From Octopus vulgaris (taxonomy: Eukaryota): a DNA stretch of 64,000 nucleotides. Location: NCBI GenBank assembly GCA_951406725.2, contig OX597816.1, positions 66,092,001 to 66,156,000 on the forward strand. The letters run 5' to 3'. Made by a program: the position numbers and the translations under genes. Below the pieces are notes generated by a model. That model did not search any database, was not told where the DNA came from, and saw nothing but the letters and a program-made list of their open reading frames with translations. Below, in pieces: positions 29,850 through 58,020 of the stretch (the first letter of the stretch is position 1; each line of letters begins with the position of its first letter).

Positions 29850-30105
29850 TGATAATGAAATTATTGCATGCAGTGCTCAGGTGCATCACAACTTGTCAAA
29901 AGTGCACATAAAGCATATGCAGTAATCTACAAATGTCTGGGAAGCGAACAGTGTATGAGTCAGGTACATGCTTGCATGTGTATGGAGGGGAGAAAATCAG
30001 GTGTAGCGTTGGCAAATCTCAGGAAGCATTGAAGTTTTGAAGGATGCAGTGCTCCGACAACTAACAACTGATGCCAGCAGTTTGTTCCATACTTCAGCAA
30101 CTCTA
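29850..30105 (-). mobile_element. CR1-type LINE 3' end
   Basis: Minus strand RVAEVWNKLLASVV plus 3'UTR and (ATT)n tail; matches 49715-50010. Confidence 0.8.
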
Positions 30106-30324
30106 AATTGTTATTTATATCAGTCATTCCTGCACTTATTTTATCTTGGAACCCTTATACAATTTTTTCCAAATATCATGGTACATATACCCATATCTTA
30201 TGGACAACTCCTGCTTTCCTAATTTTAACACTTTTGATACCAACTTACCTGAAACTGATTTGGTTCTATAACACGAATTTCAGTTCTATAACACAAAGTG
30301 ATCTAAAGTAAAACCTTTCATCAA

Positions 30325-30724
30325 TACTCTTTTACTCTTTTGCATGTTTCAGTCATTTGACTGCAGCAATGCTGGAGCACCGCCTTTAGTCGAGCAAATC
30401 GACCCCAGGACTTATTCTTTGTAAGCCTGGTACTTATTCTATTGATCTCTTTTGCCAAATCACTAAGTTAGGGGATGTAAACACACCACCATCAGTTGTC
30501 AAGCAATGTTGGGGGAACAAACAGACACACAAACACACACACACACACACATACACACATACACACACACACATACACATATATATACGATGGGCTTCTT
30601 TCAGTTTCCGTCTATCAAATCCACTCACAAGGCTTTGGTTGGCCAGAGGCTATAGTAGAAGACACTTGCCGAAAGTGCCATGCAGTGGAACTGAACCCGG
30701 AACCATGTGGTTGGTAAGCAAGCT
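30325..30724 (-). mobile_element. SINE family 1
   Basis: Near full-length copy. Confidence 0.88.
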
Positions 30725-30726
30725 GC

Positions 30727-30809
30727 TATATACCCTCCAGCCTTCATCAGGTGTCTTGGGGAAATTTTGAACCTGGGTCCTTATTCCTAAGGTATTTTTT
30801 GATGTTGTG

Positions 30810-30846
<37 letters not shown>

Positions 30847-30920
30847 GGTCACTGCCTGGAATCAAACTAGGAAGCTCGGGGTTGATAGCCTGTGCTCTTA
30901 ACCACTACGCCACATGCTCC
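30727..30920 (-). mobile_element. tRNA-headed SINE containing a hammerhead 5' half (truncated)
   Basis: Minus strand TGGCGTAGTGGTTAAGAGC..AGTTTGATTCC, (AAT)n, then GACAC-CTGATGA-A-GGCTG. Confidence 0.6.
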
Positions 30921-32584
30921 AAACAATAGTTTTACAAAGTTGTTTTATTAAATTCTTCCCTATTTTCAAAGTAAATTGAAATAAAGACAATATATTTCAA
31001 CAGAAATATAGTAACAAAAAGGGTTGATAAAGCATTCAATGAAACAAACGTTTTTAAAAGAGAATTTATTCATATAAAAACATATAATTACGTACAAATT
31101 CCATTAACTTTTATGTTTCGGGTGAAGTCAGTTTGAAAATAAATGAATAAGAAAGATCACCTCTCCAATCGGTTGACTATCTGTGGATAGGAAGAACAAA
31201 TATTTTGGTTAAACCTTCTAAATGTGCACAAAATAGATGCAATTCTGCTTGTGTAACACTCAAATTAACTCTTAGATGTTTTCAAGACTTTTGTTAGGCT
31301 TGAAATAGCTGCTGCTACTGCCACCATCATCATCGTCATCATCATCATCATCATCATCATTTGCCTTGGTTAGATAGGTTTTAAAACATCTCACCTCCTG
31401 TTACAGTCTCTTGTCATCTTGTACACACAGCGATGGAAACGGAAAAAATTGCCATGTTTTCTTTTGGAACCACTTTACAACATGAACTAGATACATGCCT
31501 ATAGTTGTTACTTGGAGTTACTGGTCTTATCAGCTGGTTTCCTGTATTGTGCTATGGAGTTTGTCTTTCCTTCATTCCTTCCTTTTCTTTTTCACTATAG
31601 TTATTTTTTTACAGCTGGATATTCTTCCTAGCACCCACCATTTAACAGTGTAAACAGTTGGACAGGCTTTTATGGCATACCTAAATATTTACACCAATTA
31701 GTGATAGTGTTTACATTTAAAATGAACTCATTATGGATTAGGTACATTTTATCATACCACTTGACTAGAGTATCAGTCTGTTGTAGAACTAAAGAAACCC
31801 TCTTAGCTTAGTAATAATGCTATTTATGACTATTGGCTGAAACCCTCAACCCCATAACGTTTGCTGGTTAATAATGGTTTCAGATCTTGGCACAGGCCCA
31901 GTAGTTTTTGATGCAAGGGGAAGTCAATTAAATTGACACCAATTTAAGTACCAGTCAAGTACTTTGGTACTTGACTGGTATTTTATTTCATTCAATTTGC
32001 CATCAAGGCATTACACAGAAGTAGTAGCTATGGGCTGGACAATAACATTAATGAGATGAATGATGAAAAAATGGTATTAATGAGGGAAGGCAGAAGACAC
32101 CCACCGATCTCTGCTTCTCTAAAACACTGTTCTTTTACAAAACATACAATTTGAGGTAATAAACCTCTTACTATTGTTCCATTTGGACTCAAGGTCCTTA
32201 CAATGAGGCACTAAGCCTCTTACCAAAAATAACACCGTGTCCTTAAAAATGAGACACTAGGCCTCTTACATTTTTCTCTTTTAGGGCCATATGCCCTTTC
32301 AGTATGAGGCACTCAGCCTCTTAATTTTACAATTTTCTGCCCCACTGGCACCCGACCAGGTTCAAAGCATCACTTAAGCAGTCTGATAGTGCCACGTCAG
32401 AGTGCCATAATCGGAAGCGGAATACACCTTCTGGGAAGGAGTCCATTATCCGTGTCTGAGATGACCTCCACAGTTACCTATGGAGGCCATCCAGGATCTT
32501 TAATGCTGTTTATGTCTCCTCCTCTGGCAAACTTTTTAGTAGACTTTCCCACTGCCTCTCCCGTGAGGGAGAAGACCAAATATT

Positions 32585-32745
32585 GTACTTATTGGTACTT
32601 AGGGTGAAAAGCAAAGTCAACCTCAGCAGAATTTGAACTCAGAATCTAAAACTGGACGAAATACTGCTAAGCATTTTGACTAGTGCAGTAACAGTTCTGC
32701 CACCTCACTGCCTTTCTGCTTATGAATAATAACAATAATAATAAT

Positions 32746-32790
<45 letters not shown>

Positions 32791-33006
32791 TATCCTTTCT
32801 ACTGAAGGCACAAGGCCTGAAATTATGGGGGAGAGGACTAATCAATTACATTGAACCCAGTATTTCACTGGTACTTATTTTATCAACCCCAAAAGGATGA
32901 CAGGCGAAGTCGACCTCAGTGGAATTTGAACTCAGAACATAAGGACAGATGAAATGCTGATAAGCATTTTGCCTGGCATGCTAGCAAATCTGCCAGCTCA
33001 CCTCCT
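32585..33006 (-). mobile_element. Two SINE family 2 copies separated by (AAT)n
   Basis: Copies at 32585-32713 and 32790-33006. Confidence 0.8.
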
Positions 33007-33067
33007 TAATAATAATGATGATGATGACGATGATGATATGTATGTATACATATAAATATATATATAT

Positions 33068-34163
33068 ACATAAGGGACTAAAGCCATCTGAATATGGCTA
33101 GGGACAGGGCAGGGTGGTGGGGGTGTTACTGTTGCATTTAGCCCCAGGCGAACATCGACGTCGCCAGATAGGCTTGACACCATCACGGTGTCCTTTAACC
33201 TGCAAAGGGAGATAATTCCCCGATGAAGCGGAAACCACACACGGACCATGGTTTCAAGGTGTATTGCCTATCATCAATGTGTGGTAGGCCCCCGCTTCCT
33301 CGACGAAATCTCACTCTGCAGGATATTCATATATAGATTTTCAAGCAAAATACATTTGCTGATTTCGAAAATCTGTTCGACAGCAATAATAATTCTCTAA
33401 ATGAGATATAGACAGTAACTGCTCCATAACATAAGGGACTAAAGCCATCTGAATATGGCTAGGGACAGGGCAGGGTGGTGGGGGTGTTACTGTTGCATTT
33501 AGCCCCAGGCGAACATCGACGTCGCCAGATAGGCTTGACACCACACATTGATGATAGGCAATACACCTTGAAACCATGGTCCGTGTGTGGTTTCCGCTTC
33601 ATCGGGGAATTATCTCCCTTTGCAGGTTAAAGGACACCGTGATGGTGTCAAGCCTATCTGGCGACGTCGATGTTCGCCTGGGGCTAAATGCAACAGTAAC
33701 ACCCCCACCACCCTGCCCTGTCCCTAGCCATATTCAGATGGCTTTAGTCCCTTATGTTATGGAGCAGTTACTGTCTATATCTCATTTAGAGAATTATTAT
33801 TGCTGTCGAACAGATTTTCGAAATCAGCAAATGTATTTTGCTTGAAAATCTATATATGAATATCCTGCAGAGTGAGATTTCGTCGAGGAAGCGGGGGCCT
33901 ACCACACGTTGATGATAGGCAATACACCTTGAAACCATGGTCCGTGTGTGGTTTCCGCTTCATCGGGGAATTATCTCCCTTTGCAGGTTAAAGGACACCG
34001 TGATGGTGTCAAGCCTATCTGGCGACGTCGATGTTCGCCTGGGGCTAAATGCAACAGTAACACCCCCACCACCCTGCCCTGTCCCTAGCCATATTCAGAT
34101 GGCTTTAGTCCCTTATGTTATGGAGCAGTTACTGTCTATATCTCATTTAGAGAATTATTATTG

Positions 34164-34165
<2 letters not shown>
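33068..34165. mobile_element. Inverted plus tandem array of a 361-bp HHR monomer (retrozyme- or pLTR-like, family E)
   Basis: Plus arm 33541-34165 has period 361 (ORFs at 33576 and 33937 share the same start); minus arm 33068-33542; (TA)n on both sides. Confidence 0.92.
33903..33948 (+). ncRNA. Type I hammerhead, U3 variant (further copies at 33542-33587 plus and 33238-33283 minus)
   Basis: CACACG-TTGATGA-TAGG caataca CCTT-GAAA-CCATGG-TC-CGTGTG. Confidence 0.75.
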
Positions 34166-34221
<56 letters not shown>

Positions 34222-34225
<4 letters not shown>

Positions 34226-34560
34226 TAACAGAATGAGATAAAAATCCAAGGCTGTGAAAGATTTCAGAACATTTATAAAGAGAAAGTCTTACAGCTGTTT
34301 CCAGGATATTTTATGTATCCCTTCATTGGAGATGGCGTGAGAAAATGGTTAAGCAATAGTTATTCTAGATAAGATATGAAATAAAGAGTGAAGTGGAGGA
34401 ATGAAAATAGACGTGAGATATGCAGGGATATTGTATCTACAGTTCCATTATTTAGGCAGAATGGTATACATATAAGATTCCTGTACCTTGTGTGTATTTA
34501 AAATTGGTCATTCCAAGCATAGAGTTTGTAAACGGTGTTATTGAATTGTTTTATACATAT
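34222..34560 (-). mobile_element. PLE-type 3' fragment with decayed HHR (family F)
   Basis: Minus strand TCT-CCAATGA-A-GGGATA..TATCCT-G-GAAA-CAGCTG-TA-AGA at about 34287-34333; second copy at 60770-60877. Confidence 0.6.
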
Positions 34561-34561
34561 G

Positions 34562-34637
34562 AGCGGTTTAGCTTAATTGGTTCAGTGCACCGCGACGCAT
34601 AATCACGGAGGTGTGAGTTCGAGTCTCATAGCCGGCC
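34562..34637 (+). pseudogene. tRNA-Met(CAT)-like sequence (pseudo-tRNA or SINE head)
   Basis: TAGCTTAATTGG A box, anticodon arm CCGCGA-CGCATAA-TCACGG, GTGAGTTCGAGTCTCAT T arm; poor acceptor stem; T-run downstream. Confidence 0.6.
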
Positions 34638-34780
34638 GCCAACACTTTTTTCTGCAAAATAGGGGTAGCTTATCCTGTCCAGGCTATATGATTAGCATTA
34701 TCCTGCATTTGAGAATTTAAAATCACTTCTTTAACTTTCTAAGACATCTCAACACTTCTAAAGCAAACTTCTTTTATCTA

Positions 34781-34814
<34 letters not shown>

Positions 34815-34818
<4 letters not shown>

Positions 34819-35020
34819 CAATATTTTATAATTACAAATATAATTATAATTAGGGTTCAGCAAAGATTTGCTTTACCACATACTGAACCTTAGCTATTTC
34901 TTCTACTATAAGAAGAGACTCCCGGACAAAAACAAAATGGTTCTTTTTCATGCCGAATTCTACTTGGTGAAATTATTGATTACTAGTTAATTAATTAATT
35001 TTACCCTTTATTATTATTGA
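34815..35020 (+). mobile_element. PLE-type 3' tail between (TA)n tracts
   Basis: Ends ACTTGGTGAAATTA..TAATTTTACCCTTTATT, like the tails of families D, H and I. Confidence 0.5.
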
Positions 35021-35042
35021 TATATGTATATATATATATAAC

Positions 35043-36128
35043 AACTGGAAAAGATACCTCGATGACTGTTTCATCATCTGGGACAAAGGCATAGAGAAAC
35101 TTGAGGAACTTAAAATTCTATTAAATGGAATAAATGACAATATACAATTCACGATGGACCACAACGAAAAAGAATTACCATTTTTAGACATCCTCATTAA
35201 GAAAACCGGCAACAAAATAGAGACAGATATCTACTATAAACCGACAGACTCTAAACAGTACCTACCCTTTGATTCATTCCACCCACGACACACTAGAATG
35301 AATGTCCCTTTTTGTTTAGCTAGAAGGATTTGCACCATAATATCAGACACAAACACCCGACACACACGTCTCCAGGAACTTAGAACCACACTCACAAATA
35401 GAAACTATCCACAGCCCCTAATAGACAGTGCAATCCAACGGGTACTTAAATTAAGTATAGAAGACCTGAGACAAACAAAACCAAAAAAGAAAGAACAATT
35501 AAAAACCCTTCCCTACATCTCTACACACAACCCACTCAACAATGAGGCCTTCAACACCATACTACAAAGCACAGCCCTACTAAAGGGAGACCCAAAGATG
35601 AACCGGATCCTCGAAACACACACCATCATTAAAAGTAAACGGCAACCAAAATCCTTGAAAAGGATTTTAACCCAAGCTACACTGCACTCAACATCAACCA
35701 CAAAACCAGCAGTTAGAAAATGTGGAAGGCCCAACTGCGGAATCTGTGTCATCTTGAAAGAAGGATCAGAATTTATACTGGAACAAGGCCACCAGTTCAC
35801 CATTAGAACAAACTTCACCTGCGCATCAGAAAACTTAATTTACATCATAACATGCGCAGGCTGCAATAGGCAGTATATAGGCCATACAAAAAATAGCTTA
35901 CGTAATAGGATGGCGGTGCATAAATCACAAATTAGAAACCCTGATTACCGCAAAATACCGGTCAGCGGACACATAGATAGATGTGCTGGAAATGTAAATC
36001 CGAAATTTACAACTAACCCACTCTATAAATTCAGTGACAACGCAACCTTCACACAACGCCAAAATAAAGAACTATATTTCATAAAAAAATTTAGACCAAG
36101 TTTAAACACCCTGGGCCAGGAATACTAA
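35043..36128 (+). CDS. PLE reverse transcriptase (C-terminal half) + GIY-YIG endonuclease, uninterrupted partial ORF
   Basis: NWKRYLDDCFIIW, LPFLD, YYKPT..YLPFDSFHP, CGRPNCGIC, CASENLIYIITC..C..QYIGHT..R...H..H; the frame is open upstream of the ORF-track ATG at 35154. Confidence 0.93.
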   Translation, partial: NWKRYLDDCFIIWDKGIEKLEELKILLNGINDNIQFTMDHNEKELPFLDILIKKTGNKIETDIYYKPTDSKQYLPFDSFHPRHTRMNVPFCLARRICTIISDTNTRHTRLQELRTTLTNRNYPQPLIDSAIQRVLKLSIEDLRQTKPKKKEQLKTLPYISTHNPLNNEAFNTILQSTALLKGDPKMNRILETHTIIKSKRQPKSLKRILTQATLHSTSTTKPAVRKCGRPNCGICVILKEGSEFILEQGHQFTIRTNFTCASENLIYIITCAGCNRQYIGHTKNSLRNRMAVHKSQIRNPDYRKIPVSGHIDRCAGNVNPKFTTNPLYKFSDNATFTQRQNKELYFIKKFRPSLNTLGQEY

Positions 36129-36294
36129 AACAAAAGATAAGTCCTCCGAAAAGGAGAACCAAATTTCACCACGGCCACTACTTCAAACAGACACTCACTC
36201 TGACGGAAATATGCCTTAGTAAAAAAGGAAAAATTCTTTCATACAAATCTGACCCTGATACATACGATACAGCTAAGGGTCAGACCCGATTCTG

Positions 36295-36690
36295 ATTGGT
36301 CAACAAGTTGATGACGTCTAGCTCTGCTAGAATGGACAGGATACAAACAGGGGACAGTCATTAGTCAGAATATTGATGACGTCCTTTTCTGCTTGAATAG
36401 TCACCTAACAAGTACAGACAGGGGGCAGATCTAATGTAGCTATAAGTCGTGATTGGGCAGAATCTGGATGACGTCCCGCTATGCTTGACTAACGAAGCGA
36501 CTGGTCAAGACAGGAAACAAACAAGAGGGAGTTATAATGCAGCAATTGGTCAAAATAATGATGACGTCCCGTTCCACTTGATTAAAGCCACCTAACGAAA
36601 CGATTGGTCAAAACATTGATGACGTCACGCTACGCTAGATTGACCACCTAACAGGCATTATAAAACTGAGCATTTCACAAAAACTCACTA
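36295..36690 (+). promoter_or_regulatory. Putative Pol II promoter in the PLE 3' region: 5x (ATTGG-N12-TGACGTC), TATA box, Inr
   Basis: Modules at 36295, 36360 (ATTAG), 36452, 36545, 36603; TATAAAA at 36659-65; CTCACT at 36684-89. Confidence 0.7.
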
Positions 36691-37004
36691 GAACCACCCA
36701 GCGAACTTCCACCATGGGTCATCACAATTGCTTAAGGTAAAAATGAATTCCTCGCTCTTTCGGAAACATCAATCTTCTGTATTGACCGCTTTCCACCACT
36801 TTGATCTGTTTTTTGTATTGAATACGTAACGCCACCGTGGGCCACTGCATCAAACACTTTGAACATATACTTCAAACTATATATCAACTATACATGAACT
36901 ATATATCAACTATACATGAACTCTAAGATGTCTGACTCCGTTGTGTATTATAAATGAATTTCTTGTGTTTGACGGCATGAGCTGTCTCTTTTTATATATA
37001 ACTT

Positions 37005-37045
37005 TTTTTGATAAGGTTCATTTCAGGAACTGAAACATGTTATAA
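37005..37045 (+). ncRNA. Decayed hammerhead of the PLE pLTR
   Basis: TTGATAA-GGTTC atttcag GAACT-GAAA-CATG-TT. Confidence 0.5.
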
Positions 37046-37103
37046 TGTATATATAAAAATTTAAAATTGTATAATACAGCAGCATTTTCGAACTTCATTT
37101 TTT

Positions 37104-37147
<44 letters not shown>

Positions 37148-37627
37148 TTGTGTTTTGAGTTGTATTTTCATGTTTGTATCACCAAACCTATTTACTCTGT
37201 AGTAACAATTTACATAGGAAGTTTTGTCATCATCAACACAAGTAAAGATTGATTTAAAACTTCTGAAACAATAACAACAACAACAGCAATCCATCCAAAC
37301 ACAATTCCTTTTCAAATAAAGATGCGATCATATGTTCCCAAATCAGTGAGATGGTTAACATTTTATGGTAAACGTTTTATTTCCAACATTTTCTATTTAG
37401 TCTACTCCAGTATACTAACAAAGACTTTTTCTCCTTCTTTGCATCTAATTTATTTTTCTCTTATTTATTCGTTATAGTCGTGGAAGAGAGAAAGGGGCCA
37501 TTAAACTTCAACATGGGTAAAGGGATCATCTATTTCTTAAATCAAATCTCACTTACTTACTTGTTCTTACACTATCTTCTATCAATGCTGTGGTACCACA
37601 CTCAGTTTGGCTTTGATTTTAATCTTT

Positions 37628-37998
37628 ACTACATCATATTTTAGCTATAGCTTCAACATCATTGCTATATCGTTGCTATATCATTGCTATATTGTTGCTA
37701 TATAACACCTCTGCACTGATGCAAGGAAACTATTCCTTGTCATTGCTTGTTATGACAACTTATACCCATGATTGCTATGACATCATCCCTCTACAGTACT
37801 GATGTAATAAAACAAACACTCATTACATCATATTGTAGCTAAACCTTCAAAATCATTGCTATGATACTGTATATTGTTGCTATATATCATTTCTGCACTG
37901 ACACTAGGAAAACATTCCATGCCATTGATTGTTATGACAGCCTGTACCTATCATTGGTATGACATCATCCCTCTGCATTTTTGAATTAATAAAACAAA
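37628..37998. repeat. Diverged tandem duplication, about 195-bp period
   Basis: TACATCATATT.TAGCTA..CTGCACTGA..TTGTTATGACA..TATGACATCATCCCTCT..TAATAAAACAAA occurs twice. Confidence 0.8.
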
Positions 37999-38311
37999 TG
38001 CCCTGTCATTAAAGAAGCCCCATTGTCTTAAGTCATTTACTATAACACTATACTGTAATATTATTTCCACAAAATACTACTTTGTTACTATCATATTTTA
38101 TCATTTGGTTACTAAAGCATTTTATTATTCCAATAACATTTTATTTGTTCTTTACAGTAGTGCTATGCACCATCATTGCTTAGATTAAATGTTGTTATTT
38201 TAGCATTTTGATTCTGCTTGAACACTTTATTCTGTTCAACTAATTAATTATTTTCATGGATTCCTGGATGAAATATATTAACTTGTGAATTTTTTTTATC
38301 GACTATTCCAG

Positions 38312-52688: not shown

Positions 52689-55005
52689 CAGTGATTCCCA
52701 AGGTGGGGCGTACGCCCCACTGGTGGGGCCTGAGAAAATTCAGGTGGGGCGCGGGGCATAGACGTGGGCTGTGAAAATATTTGTACATGACGAGCGGTCA
52801 TCGTGGGCACAACCTTAGATTCCGTCTTTCCTTTGAAGCCTCCACATCGGAAACTCTCGCACCCCAGCGAGACAAAGAAGATCCCGCACTGAGCAATAAA
52901 CTTACTATTCAGATAAGCCAATCAATTGCCTCAATTAGTTTGCCTCAATTAGTCTTTGGAGTTTTTGAAGTTTGGATTCATTCCTGATGAGCATGATGAG
53001 CGTAAACCGTTTTGCTTATTATGTAATCAGACGATGAGCAATGAGTCAATGAAGGCAGGTAGGCTGGAAGCGCACTTAAAGGTAAGACATCCTAATAATT
53101 CTAATTTAGATTTGGAATACTTCAAATCATTGAAAGAAAAATTTAAAAACTGAACAAAACTCACTTCACTATTTCATGCAAAACAAGTGCCTCATACTCG
53201 TGCCCTTGAAGCCAGCTACGAAATCTCCTTGCTTATAGCAAAACATGGAAATAATCACACTATTGGAGAGCAACTGGTTAAACCTGCTATCTCAATATTC
53301 TTAAAGACTGTATTACAAAAAGATGATGGAGATATCAGGACTATGCCACTCAGTAATAACACTGTCTCGAACAGAATAGATGAAATGGGGCAAGATGTTG
53401 AAAGCCAGCTCATTGAGAAATTAAAATTGCGTAAGTTTTCATTACAAATGGACGAATCCACAATCCGGGACAGTGAGGCTCTGTTATTGACTTATGTGAG
53501 GTATATTGACCACGAGGAGTTTCAGGAAGAGATGCTGTTCTGCGAATCGTTTGAAACCACCACAACTGCAAATGATATTTACATCAAAATCAAACATTAT
53601 TTGGATGCAAACAAAATACCAAAGGAAAACTTACTGGCATGTGCGGCAGACGGTGCACCTGCCATGATGGGCAAGAATACGGGATGCTTAAAAATGATGA
53701 AGGATGAAAATCCAAACATGTTGACTGTCCATTGTGTAATACACCGAGAAAACTTGGTTGCCAAGAAATTGTCCCCTGTTCTTAACAAGATTCTTCAAAG
53801 TGTGATCAAGTGTGTCAACAGCATTAAAAGAAATTCTAAATCTGAACGTCTTTTTAAGCAGTTTTGTATAATTCAAAGTGCCGAACATGTTCGATTATTG
53901 CTTCATACAGAAGTAAGATGGCTATCAAGTGGAAACTGCTTAAAGAGGTTCATGGAATTATTTGATCAGATTAACGACTTTCTTAGTGATAAATGTGAAA
54001 TGAAATTGCTGTCAACAACGGATGGAAAAGCATTTGTCAGTTATTTGACAGACATATTTGAGAAACTTGGAAACTTGAATAAACAACTTCAAGGTGCAAA
54101 CATGACACTTATTGATGCAAAAGCAAAGATTTTTGGATTTATTACAGCTCTCGAATTATGGAAAAAGAAATTTTCCAAAAGAAATTTCAGTGAACTTTAC
54201 TGGTTGAGTAAATGTGAATTAACAAATGATGCTGGCATTGTAATTATTGATCATTTAAATATCTTGATAAAGGATTTCAATGACAGATTTTGCGACTTAA
54301 AGGCAATGAATTTTCCTTCTTGGTTAACTCAACCGCTTCTGATTAACGTTTCTGATGCTACAATCCAATACCAAGAAGAGTTATCAGAATTACAACATGA
54401 TGAATCAGTGAAGACTTTGTTTAAATTGAAAGGTACAAAGATGTGGCTATATGACGAGGTTGAAAGAAAATATCCTAAAATTTCTACATCAGCGAGAGAG
54501 CTACTGATTCCTTTCCCTTCGTCTTATTTGGTCGAATGTGGTTTTAGTGCAGTTGATAATTTGCTCGAAGCCAAGAGAAACCGGCTTGAGATTACAAAAT
54601 GTGGCGATTTACGACTGAAATTAACAAAGTTGTCTCCTCAAATTAAAAACTTGTGCTGTATGCATCAGGCACAGGGTTCTCACTAAATTAGTCGAGCTGA
54701 CCGTCAAATAATTGAACTGAAAAAACGTGTTTCTTTATTCTTTATAAATTGACATTTTTTAAAAACATGAGAAATCGTAATAATTTTATCGATTTATTGG
54801 GTGTTATGCACTTTCAGTGCCTGTTGTTTCAATTCTCAAACTATTTTTTTGTATTTTGAATACAATTTTTTAATTTTTGATTTTTTTTCAATTGTAAGTA
54901 GGCCCACATGTACTTGTAAATGTGAGTGGACATGGGAAAAGGTGGGGCGTAAAAACTTTTGCTATGAAAAAGTGGGGCGCCGGGAAAAAAGGTTGGGAAA
55001 CACTG
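52689..55005 (+). mobile_element. hAT transposon, Buster/Charlie group, full length (2317 bp)
   Basis: TIRs CAGTGATTCCCAA / TTGGGAAACACTG; 8-bp TSD TTCTAGAG at 52681-88 and 55006-13; subterminal GTGGGGCG repeats at both ends. Confidence 0.96.
52956..54686 (+). pseudogene. Buster/Charlie (ZBED5/ZBED8/SCAND3-like) transposase with one in-frame TGA and a damaged start
   Basis: BED finger CLLC..HLKVRH; FSLQMDES, ADGAPAM, CVIH, VRWLS, SYLVECGFS, C-terminal QGSH; TGA at 53151-53 in frame. Confidence 0.92.
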
Positions 55006-57009: not shown

Positions 57010-58020
57010 TAGTAGTTTTATTTTTATAGCGTGCTTTCACTTCACTACCGAGCGCAGCTCTGTGTGCCTTGGGTATGTGCTGTGGTTTGTTGAGATGTTC
57101 TTATGGTTACTGTATTGAAAATGTTTTGCGTAGGATGTGTGCAGTGTCCAGTATATATATTTGTAAGTCCTGGTGTTTTTGTTATGTATTTGTCTGAATA
57201 TTTTTTTATCATATCTAATGCACCTACTATGATAGGAATTGTTTCTGTTTTTAGATTCCACATTCGAGTTACCTCTATTTCCAGGTCTTTGTATTTTGAA
57301 AGTTTTTCCATTTCTTTTAGGGAAACGTTGTCATCTGCTGGTATTGATACATCAATTAGAAAGCATTTTTTTCTTCATGATCTCTGACAACTATATCTGG
57401 CCTATTGGCCTTAATTTCTCTATTTGTGTTTATAGGCATATCCCAAAGTATGGTTGCTTTCTCGTTTTCTGTGACCTTTTCTGGTGTGTGCCTATACCAT
57501 CTTTTTTCTGTTGTTATTCCATAGTGCTGGCATAGCTTCCAGTGTCTGTGAATATAGTCCTTCTTAGCCAGGATTGGGTTGCCAGAGATAATATGATTTA
57601 TTGTTTCTTGTCCATCTCCACATATTCTGCAGTTAATTGTTATGTTTCTTTTCATTATATGTTTTTGGTAATTTCTGGTGGGGAGGCTTTGGTCTTGTGC
57701 TGCAATTAAAAATCCTTCCATCTCTGCTTTGAGTCCTGAGCTTCTCAACCATTGCTGGGATTTTTCTCTGTCTATTTCTTTTGCATTTAGTTTAGTCCAG
57801 TATTTGCCATGAAGGGGCTTTTCTTGCCATCGTTTTATCATGGTCCATTGCTGTTCTAGTTTTAGTTTGGTTTTCCGTTGTTTTATAGCTTTTGTTGTTT
57901 CTTCTTCTTCTCCATATTTGTTAGGTAGTTTGATTTCTTGTTTGTATTTGTCAGCTTCCTTAAATACTGAGAACAGTTTTTTGTTTTGCGGCTATTTGTA
58001 TCAGTTTTCCTTGCTTCTGA
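57010..58020 (-). mobile_element. 5'-truncated R4/Dong-clade RLE non-LTR retrotransposon in (TAA)n
   Basis: WQEKPLHGKY, AAQDQSLPTRNY, CRICGDGQETINHIISG, RH, RPDIVV..IDVSIP, KLSKY; (TAA)n on both sides. Confidence 0.93.

Follow-up and report, generated by a model that had tools for sequence, protein, structure and literature searches.

A hammerhead retrozyme family of Octopus vulgaris probably mobilised by Penelope-like elements

Non-LTR retrozymes have been defined in animals, and their RNA circles were shown in mussel with units of 350-390 nt (PMC7229834). Penelope-like elements (PLEs) have been named as their likely partners (PMC7761336, PMC11722881), and the retrozyme repeats are described as showing no partner-indicating motif (PMC7761336). 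From co-occurrence and pLTR similarity, a preprint (10.64898/2026.07.22.740005), the accessible text of which samples no mollusc, argues that non-LTR retrozymes represent non-autonomous PLEs. The PLEs are characterized by partial tandems, an inverted 5'-truncated copy, an often one-sided tail of 30-40 bp and a (TA)n bias (PMC8557442), the tail corresponding to the spacing of two internal sites at which reverse transcription starts (PMC11167929). Their hammerheads show U3-A8 covariation, a palindromic stem III and low activity in vitro (PMC4209133). Here and below, the literature is represented by those portions of the cited papers that are accessible to us; in them, the enzyme that moves animal retrozymes and the use of the circle as a template are open points.

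Here we compare with these systems one insertion in a 64,000-nt stretch of the Octopus vulgaris genome (the window, to which all plain coordinates refer) and its relatives in the 2.8-Gb assembly of 227 contigs. The insertion is organized as follows:

33068-34165, unstranded: whole retrozyme, a non-autonomous hammerhead repeat of PLE type inserted once, with two divergent arms
33068-33543, minus strand: inverted 5'-truncated arm, unit positions 104-361 then 1-218, with a short 3' end and no tail
33540-34165, plus strand: plus arm, unit positions 1-361 then 1-265, with a long 3' end and the tail
33540-33543, unstranded: 4-nt microhomology at the inversion junction, where the arms overlap
33540-33591, plus strand: hammerhead 1, of type I with a U3-G8 core; the base of stem I holds an A-C mismatch, and the cut is predicted after 33581
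33901-33952, plus strand: hammerhead 2, stem I intact, predicted cut after 33942
33234-33285, minus strand: hammerhead 3, in the inverted arm, A-C mismatch as in hammerhead 1, predicted cut after 33244
33582-33942, plus strand: predicted 361-nt monomer from cut to cut, both ends pairing as a long extension of stem I
34122-34165, plus strand: 44-nt tail, bounded by the two fixed 3' ends (unit positions 222-265), with an internal copy at 33761-33804
33050-33067, unstranded: left part of the (TA)n target tract
34166-34222, unstranded: right part of the (TA)n target tract

A previous sequence-only reading of the window had counted about 1.7 head-to-tail units on the plus strand and about 1.3 on the minus strand, nearly identical to one another, and this is borne out: the plus arm measures 626 nt (1.73 units, with boundaries at 33540-33900 and 33901-34165), the minus arm measures 476 nt (1.32 units, 33543-33068), and a single position varies among the copies, with A at 33547 and in the minus copy versus G at 33908. 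The three hammerheads that it reported were located as type I motifs of the form UUGAUGA...GAAA-CCAUGG-UC, starting at 33548, 33909 and, on the minus strand, 33277; the predicted cut positions 33581 and 33942 derive from this motif. The reported retention of CpG is seen in an observed/expected ratio of 0.65 versus 0.36 in the window, and the G+C content of 33001-34000 is 45%. That the plus arm starts at stem I is correct for the locus but does not hold as a family feature, as judged by 9 of 128 arm starts within unit positions 1-20, where about 7 are expected. Because of the sole base difference, two of the three hammerheads have an A-C mismatch adjoining the cut site, at a position occupied by G in 211 of 215 aligned family copies. 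An Rfam scan of 30000-38000 returned no hammerhead row at E<=1, and a sister-family copy scored 32.2 bits on RF00163, below the gathering score of 34.

Several other features share the window. To the left of the retrozyme, 32601-32725 and 32894-33018 hold a short and very abundant repeat, its two copies being 72% alike. To its right, a tRNA-like stretch on the plus strand (34561-34641; tRNA-Met by ARAGORN, 25.7 bits in Rfam with a gathering score of 29, high depth in public runs) is probably the head of a tRNA-derived SINE. A plus-strand frame of 510 aa at 53154-54683 has no Pfam match and is one that we take to resemble a hAT-type transposase, and 57359-57991 (minus strand) is a LINE fragment with a weak zf-RVT match.

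The family to which the locus belongs is large. Its hammerhead pattern (15 bases plus a gap) matched 916 times genome-wide, the reversed control giving 0 matches, and a search with the 361-nt unit yielded 1,453 candidates, of which 40 were scored. Copies are spread over at least 19 contigs in arrays of 1 to 24 segments, with up to 15 head-to-tail 361-nt units per arm. A pattern for the canonical CUGANGA core found 1,558 further matches representing sister families; their units of 352-354 nt are about 63% identical to the 361-nt unit and are alike in layout, in the two 3' ends and in the inverted arms. The sister families are represented by L206:2808-3368, L241-L310 and L350-L379. In one of them a G-C pair closes the base of stem II, which would make it the substrate of choice for assaying cleavage. 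The frame that opens at the stem III ATG runs for 89 codons at only 18 sites and for 21 codons at 107, and its ATG is absent at 33; the 89-codon version has no Pfam match and was dropped as a coding sequence, being unconserved across sites. An intron across the hammerhead was also rejected because the acceptor AG is missing in sister families. As judged from its sequence, the 361-nt unit is non-coding. Private variants show slight CpG decay (18 of 5,181 versus 55 of 22,653).

We analyzed 75 distinct insertions, comprising 39 from the best-match and exact-motif lists (flanks of about 1.2-1.5 kb) and 36 with flanks of 3-4 kb, duplicates having been removed by hand. An inverted second arm is present in 53. 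The 3' ends (n=128) lie mainly at unit positions 221 (53 ends) and 265 (45 ends), with minor sites at 218 (6) and 261 (9), and 49 of the 53 inverted insertions combine one short end (~221) with one long end (~265); where both ends could be classed, they are mixed in 49 of 50 inverted insertions, with P 4e-14 under independence. The offset between the main ends is 44 nt, corresponding to the PLE 'tail', and TA repeats abut 115 of 124 classed ends. A 10-bp target duplication is seen at two inverted copies that lie outside TA tracts (L015, L027). Points of 5' truncation are scattered along the unit, inversion points differ between copies, and the lengths of the two arms in one insertion are uncorrelated (51 pairs, rho 0.08). 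Loose ends at 218/221 and at 265 are seen again in independent public sequencing runs. The retrozyme identity proposed by the sequence-only reading is supported, but that reading did not see a PLE insertion signature in the inverted arm and the two ends. Inverted arms with two fixed ends indicate that the copies were likely pasted in by Penelope-type retrotransposons; the insertion scars themselves point to the PLE pathway. The locus is, very probably, a recent insertion of a PLE-mobilised retrozyme.

Covariation was evaluated in 20 diverged intact copies, hand-picked from 52 non-redundant segments, with segments cut by inversion junctions, truncations or foreign flanks left out. In these copies, 90.9% of the cells of the named structure are paired, versus 23-51% in slid controls, and there are 51 double changes versus 18.7 in shuffled sets, with 0 of 500 shuffles as high (related sequences can beat shuffles, so the figure is not a probability). 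The helix joining the two ends of the monomer covaries across families, and the motif columns are nearly invariant in about 220 aligned units. Among 88 distinct hammerhead types, the 3-8 pair is C-G in 57, U-G in 16, U-A in 13 and C-A in 0 (the search patterns favour C-G), with U3-G8 sitting between the C3-G8 and U3-A8 types. The self-complementarity noted for stem III of the locus (CCAUGG) extends to 79 of the 88 types when G-U pairs are allowed, and to 59 strictly, in several different sequences. The U3-G8 core and the unpaired base of stem II, which had been raised as a caveat, are present but are family-wide traits rather than decay: 17 of the 20 aligned copies have no pair at the base of stem II, and no family member has a fully canonical core, the alternatives being U3-G8, U3-A8 or C3 with C4. 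Because covariation extends over the hammerhead stems, the palindrome of stem III and the 3-8 core pair, the ribozyme is under selection.

Folded as a circle, 33582-33942 reaches a predicted -116.7 kcal/mol (z -4.7 versus 100 shuffles) with its ends paired, and the predicted fold of 33540-33960 holds two ribozymes with a common stem III (pairing probability ~0.48; z -4.78). A 7-nt pairing between the core and downstream sequence was discarded, its probability in the dimer fold being 0. In the same fold, the cut at 33942 depends on the strand carrying A33547, which mismatches, and monomer release at the locus is doubtful because of this A-C mismatch. A U3-G8 core would affect the rate of cleavage. 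With this core, and with the mismatch in two of its three copies, the locus is predicted to be a weak cleavage candidate and would be a poor test case.

We consider it fairly probable that the retrozyme is copied into (TA)n by the RT and GIY-YIG nuclease of an autonomous PLE, probably from circular RNA. At the sequence level, the account draws on dispersed copies, tandem units, the inverted arm, two 3' ends, (TA)n targets, the lack of an ORF, and covariation, and the retrozyme identity itself is upheld by a dispersed non-coding tandem unit with a covarying hammerhead and a self-complementary stem III, with no PLE ORF attached in the copies examined. In the proposed cycle, a tandem copy would be transcribed, and the unit ends would pair, such that the palindromic stem III joins two successive hammerheads and each cuts. 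The monomer, or sometimes a dimer, would then be closed by a host ligase. A PLE protein would nick both (TA)n strands, and at each DNA end cDNA would start from its own internal site, the two sites lying 44 nt apart. Each cDNA would run round the template for a random length until microhomology joins both, leaving two divergent arms.

A PLE-dependent parasite could instead use an uncut linear tandem transcript as template, its hammerhead being slow or used elsewhere and no circle being formed; we regard this as rather unlikely, although it accommodates several observations. All family cores are non-canonical, and 56 of 128 arms span at least two uncut hammerheads. The accessible text of PMC11167929 reports that the hammerhead is unnecessary for insertion in vitro and that no RNA-seq ends fall at the cut site of an anole element. 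A further point against the proposed cycle is the dimer cleavage in 1 of 9 given in the accessible text of preprint 10.64898/2026.07.22.740005. Arrays could, however, only become shorter if copied from linear RNA, and arms of up to 5,301 nt made of near-identical units are found. The longest arms also occur in the subfamily in which the C3-G8 pair is restored (CCGA core), where 12 of 53 arms exceed 1,100 nt versus 1 of 75 in the subfamily of the locus; the difference persists in 27 insertions sampled by motif alone (P 0.002). Arms starting one base after the cut site are found in the same C3-G8 subfamily (3 of 53 versus 0 of 75), and this pile-up is small (P 0.035 over 128 arms, or 0.003 after a subfamily split made post hoc). 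A linear template is further disfavoured by the covariation across families of the helix joining the monomer ends. If the C3-G8 ribozymes cut in vivo, the 5-kb arms would arise most simply from rolling on a circle.

Differences between units of one insertion are few, amounting to 158 private and 5 shared ones in 57,195 bases of 35 arrays, and to 3 in one insertion of 8.3 kb. In 9 of 40 arrays a rare variant (present in at most one other insertion) is fixed in all covering units, in 8 of them across both arms; such variants would fit a single short template, and would also fit unsampled uniform source arrays, given the 75 insertions examined. Variants shared between units in L005, L009, L021 and L158 alternate by unit (period 2) or match by unit index, the period-2 alternation in L158, L009 and L005 being confined to single sites. 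The index-matched variants are present in both arms of L009 and L021, a point in favour of the linear template, and the terminal units of the locus differ at the mismatch position. Variants patterned by index would fit dimer circles or linear multimers and argue against a purely monomeric template. In public-run records, 19 rows hold the stretch and 0 are on record as RNA. From four runs whose RNA status is guessed, two contigs over the unit (373 and 390 nt) contain one whole variant-haplotype unit with 30 nt more and extend across the head-to-tail junction; this would fit a circle, a tandem transcript or DNA equally. Among the joints listed, none is an empty-site joint for the locus. Taken together, we lean slightly towards a circle as the usual template in the family, and find it doubtful that the locus itself yields one.

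It is very improbable that the copies are mere 5'-truncated ends (pLTRs) of an autonomous PLE, despite the presence of all PLE insertion hallmarks and the resemblance of vertebrate retrozymes to pLTRs (accessible text of preprint 10.64898/2026.07.22.740005). The 361-nt units stand head to tail, up to 15 per arm, with no ORF between hammerheads. Read-through of the tail, examined at 30 of 285 genome sites, reaches the next hammerhead after 84-89 nt in 28 copies, the remaining two having a mutated hammerhead and a rearranged junction, respectively, and enters an ORF in 0 of 30. PLE fragments flank 8 of the 75 insertions, 0 of them in pLTR geometry, and an RT plus GIY-YIG ORF between pLTRs was found in none of the 75 insertions or 30 read-through loci. 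The retrozyme can be classed as a non-autonomous PLE because no copy examined runs into a PLE ORF. For the same 75 insertions and 30 loci, the concern that the unit might always be just a pLTR does not apply, because no PLE ORF is attached, and the pLTR reading appears largely refuted for the sampled copies.

Autonomous PLEs were searched for a partner of the retrozyme, beginning with a neighbour in the window that served as a control:

35040-37107, plus strand: separate 5'-truncated Neptune-like PLE (RT end, GIY-YIG and its own pLTR), outside the retrozyme

Its pLTR carries a different, hammerhead-like U3-A8 motif near 37008-37045; 4-5 copies of a 41-nt repeat lie at 36294-36642. The family of this neighbour is young and abundant, many copies having an open 781-aa frame that includes the RT, and it ends in (TA)n at two sites about 40 nt apart (26 and 5 of 31 ends). 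As a partner it was rejected, its pLTR being different. A family profile found no pLTR sequence in common with the unit in 148 PLE-containing loci, a small share of the genome's PLE copies that leaves the pLTR reading some room; within these loci the lack of a sequence-related autonomous partner counts against the proposed cycle. A superfamily profile over the same loci gave 10 distinct places, and those inspected (L191, L206, L284, L277) are separate insertions. Among the rejected candidates, the tail match beside a second PLE family at L191 is a separate older insertion, and the apparent link from pLTR to ORF at L284 is a sister copy inserted into the inverted arm of a third family. Four loci near PLE fragments (L271, L277, L279, L303) have a distance or orientation unfit for a pLTR, the intervening sequence having been inspected at L277 only.

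The autonomous elements have features of their own. At L209:3185, L345 and L284:4363, an upstream ORF overlaps the RT-nuclease frame in -1 at a common U-rich slippery-type heptamer, in two intact Neptune-like families and one degraded relative. One family has no methionine at the overlap, so a programmed frameshift is the likely reading of the -1 overlap in these Neptune-like families; a frameshifted ORF1 is described for some PLE types (PMC8557442). At L297:3523-5142 (minus strand), a 540-aa PLE frame of another clade has a C-terminal GIY-YIG with a weak Pfam match.

Highly unlikely, too, is that the copies are DNA versions of a viroid-like RNA that replicates from RNA to RNA and is occasionally reverse-transcribed. 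A highly paired 361-nt circle (predicted fold) and a large number of closely similar haplotypes (of 2,628 pairs, 19 are identical) would suit such an agent, and RNA-RNA replication has been raised for mussel retrozymes (PMC7229834), but the opposite strand of the unit has no hammerhead, all copies bear the PLE signature, and successive transposition explains the variation. A satellite or fold-back repeat that DNA recombination has spread, or an artefact of assembly, in which a motif resembles a hammerhead by chance, is scarcely credible: slippage or misassembly beside microsatellites can make tandem and inverted repeats, and Rfam does not call the motifs of the locus, but the reading is refuted by the two constant 3' ends and by covariation, seen as compensatory changes in the ribozyme, with at least 19 contigs, differing inversion points and the recurrence of both end classes (218/221 and 265) in independent public runs also against it.

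The sister families of this putatively PLE-mobilised retrozyme are themselves invaded. A 5.3-kb L1/Tx1-like LINE (CCHC, APE, RT, zf-RVT) lies in three sister copies, 11 nt upstream of the hammerhead core, and its nearest solved relative is human L1 ORF2 (E 1e-48). The loci are:

L380 (G000:C2:94510500-94520400), L381 and L382: LINE-bearing loci
L386-L415: further copies

All three full-length copies have a 14-bp target duplication, one with a single mismatch. A search with the LINE 3' end gave 626 candidates; 40 were scored and the best 30 examined, and in 28 of these 30 retrozyme sequence follows directly 3' at one site. The other two have the target motif followed by non-retrozyme sequence, in one case a second LINE copy. 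Median identity is 80% for the flanks and 97% for the LINE ends, and these are therefore independent LINE insertions. No such insertion was seen in the locus's own family, the sequence of which differs at the target site. In L271, L273 and L298 the hammerheads are preceded by 3' ends of different LINEs, which suggests more than one retrozyme-targeting LINE family. Precedents in the Tx1 clade are Tx1 into Tx1D and Tx1-Mar into Mariner-N4 (PMC4494074).

More tentatively, and with rather less confidence than in PLE-driven copying as such, the system could be read as a three-layer chain of parasites, in which the family is a 361-nt RNA circle carrying every cis signal for PLE transposition. A PLE protein dimer would start cDNA at both sites and roll round the circle, the 3-8 pair would tune the frequency of circles and hence array length, and the site-specific LINE would parasitise the circles and may borrow the hammerhead cut for processing its own RNA.

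Compared with known systems, the LINE resembles those of the Tx1 clade (PMC4494074) in being an APE-RT LINE with a preferred site in a non-autonomous element; it differs in that the target is a ribozyme retrotransposon, and it is a candidate member of that clade. Our literature searches found no published report of a LINE homing into a ribozyme element or of the LINE that homes into the sister retrozymes.

The retrozyme shares with those of coral, mussel and axolotl (PMC7229834) non-coding tandem units within 150-450 nt, a type I hammerhead per unit, a short palindromic stem III, a highly paired monomer, G+C below 50% and PLEs in the genome. Unlike the metazoan retrozymes described, the Octopus insertions show an inverted arm, a one-sided tail and a (TA)n target, and the core is non-canonical, with cleavage and circle as predictions. 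A term search of the accessible texts did not find 'inverted' in PMC7229834 or 'tail' in preprint 10.64898/2026.07.22.740005, and in the open literature, with Repbase and Dfam outside the scope, we found no description of retrozymes with inverted or tailed insertions. In the accessible sources, 24 of 57 Xenopus retrozyme families have a sequence-related pLTR, whereas none was found for the Octopus unit among 148 PLE loci.

Partial tandems, an inverted 5'-truncated copy, a tail at one end and a (TA)n preference (the last common to the Octopus retrozyme, Neptune and Naiad) are shared with Neptune-type PLEs (PMC8557442, PMC11167929, PMC4209133), as is a hammerhead variant with a palindromic stem III and U3-A8 covariation. 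In contrast to these PLEs, the retrozyme lacks an RT or GIY-YIG ORF and consists of direct unit repeats with no ORF between hammerheads, and its tail is 44 nt versus the 30-40 nt described. Non-autonomous Chlamys PLEs such as MRC1 (PMC8557442) are likewise non-coding, pLTR-forming, multicopy head-to-tail and PLE-moved; in them the 3' end is similar to that of the autonomous partner and hammerheads are mostly absent, whereas the Octopus retrozyme is the reverse.

Two start sites were found in vitro; the near-strict presence of one tail per insertion goes further, as it implies that a single event uses both. The question of a circle can be put to a direct test with a 361-nt template that occurs naturally in C3-G8, U3-G8 and U3-A8 versions. 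Retrozymes of this kind are already known, and the family of the locus is a further member with unusually clear mechanistic scars.
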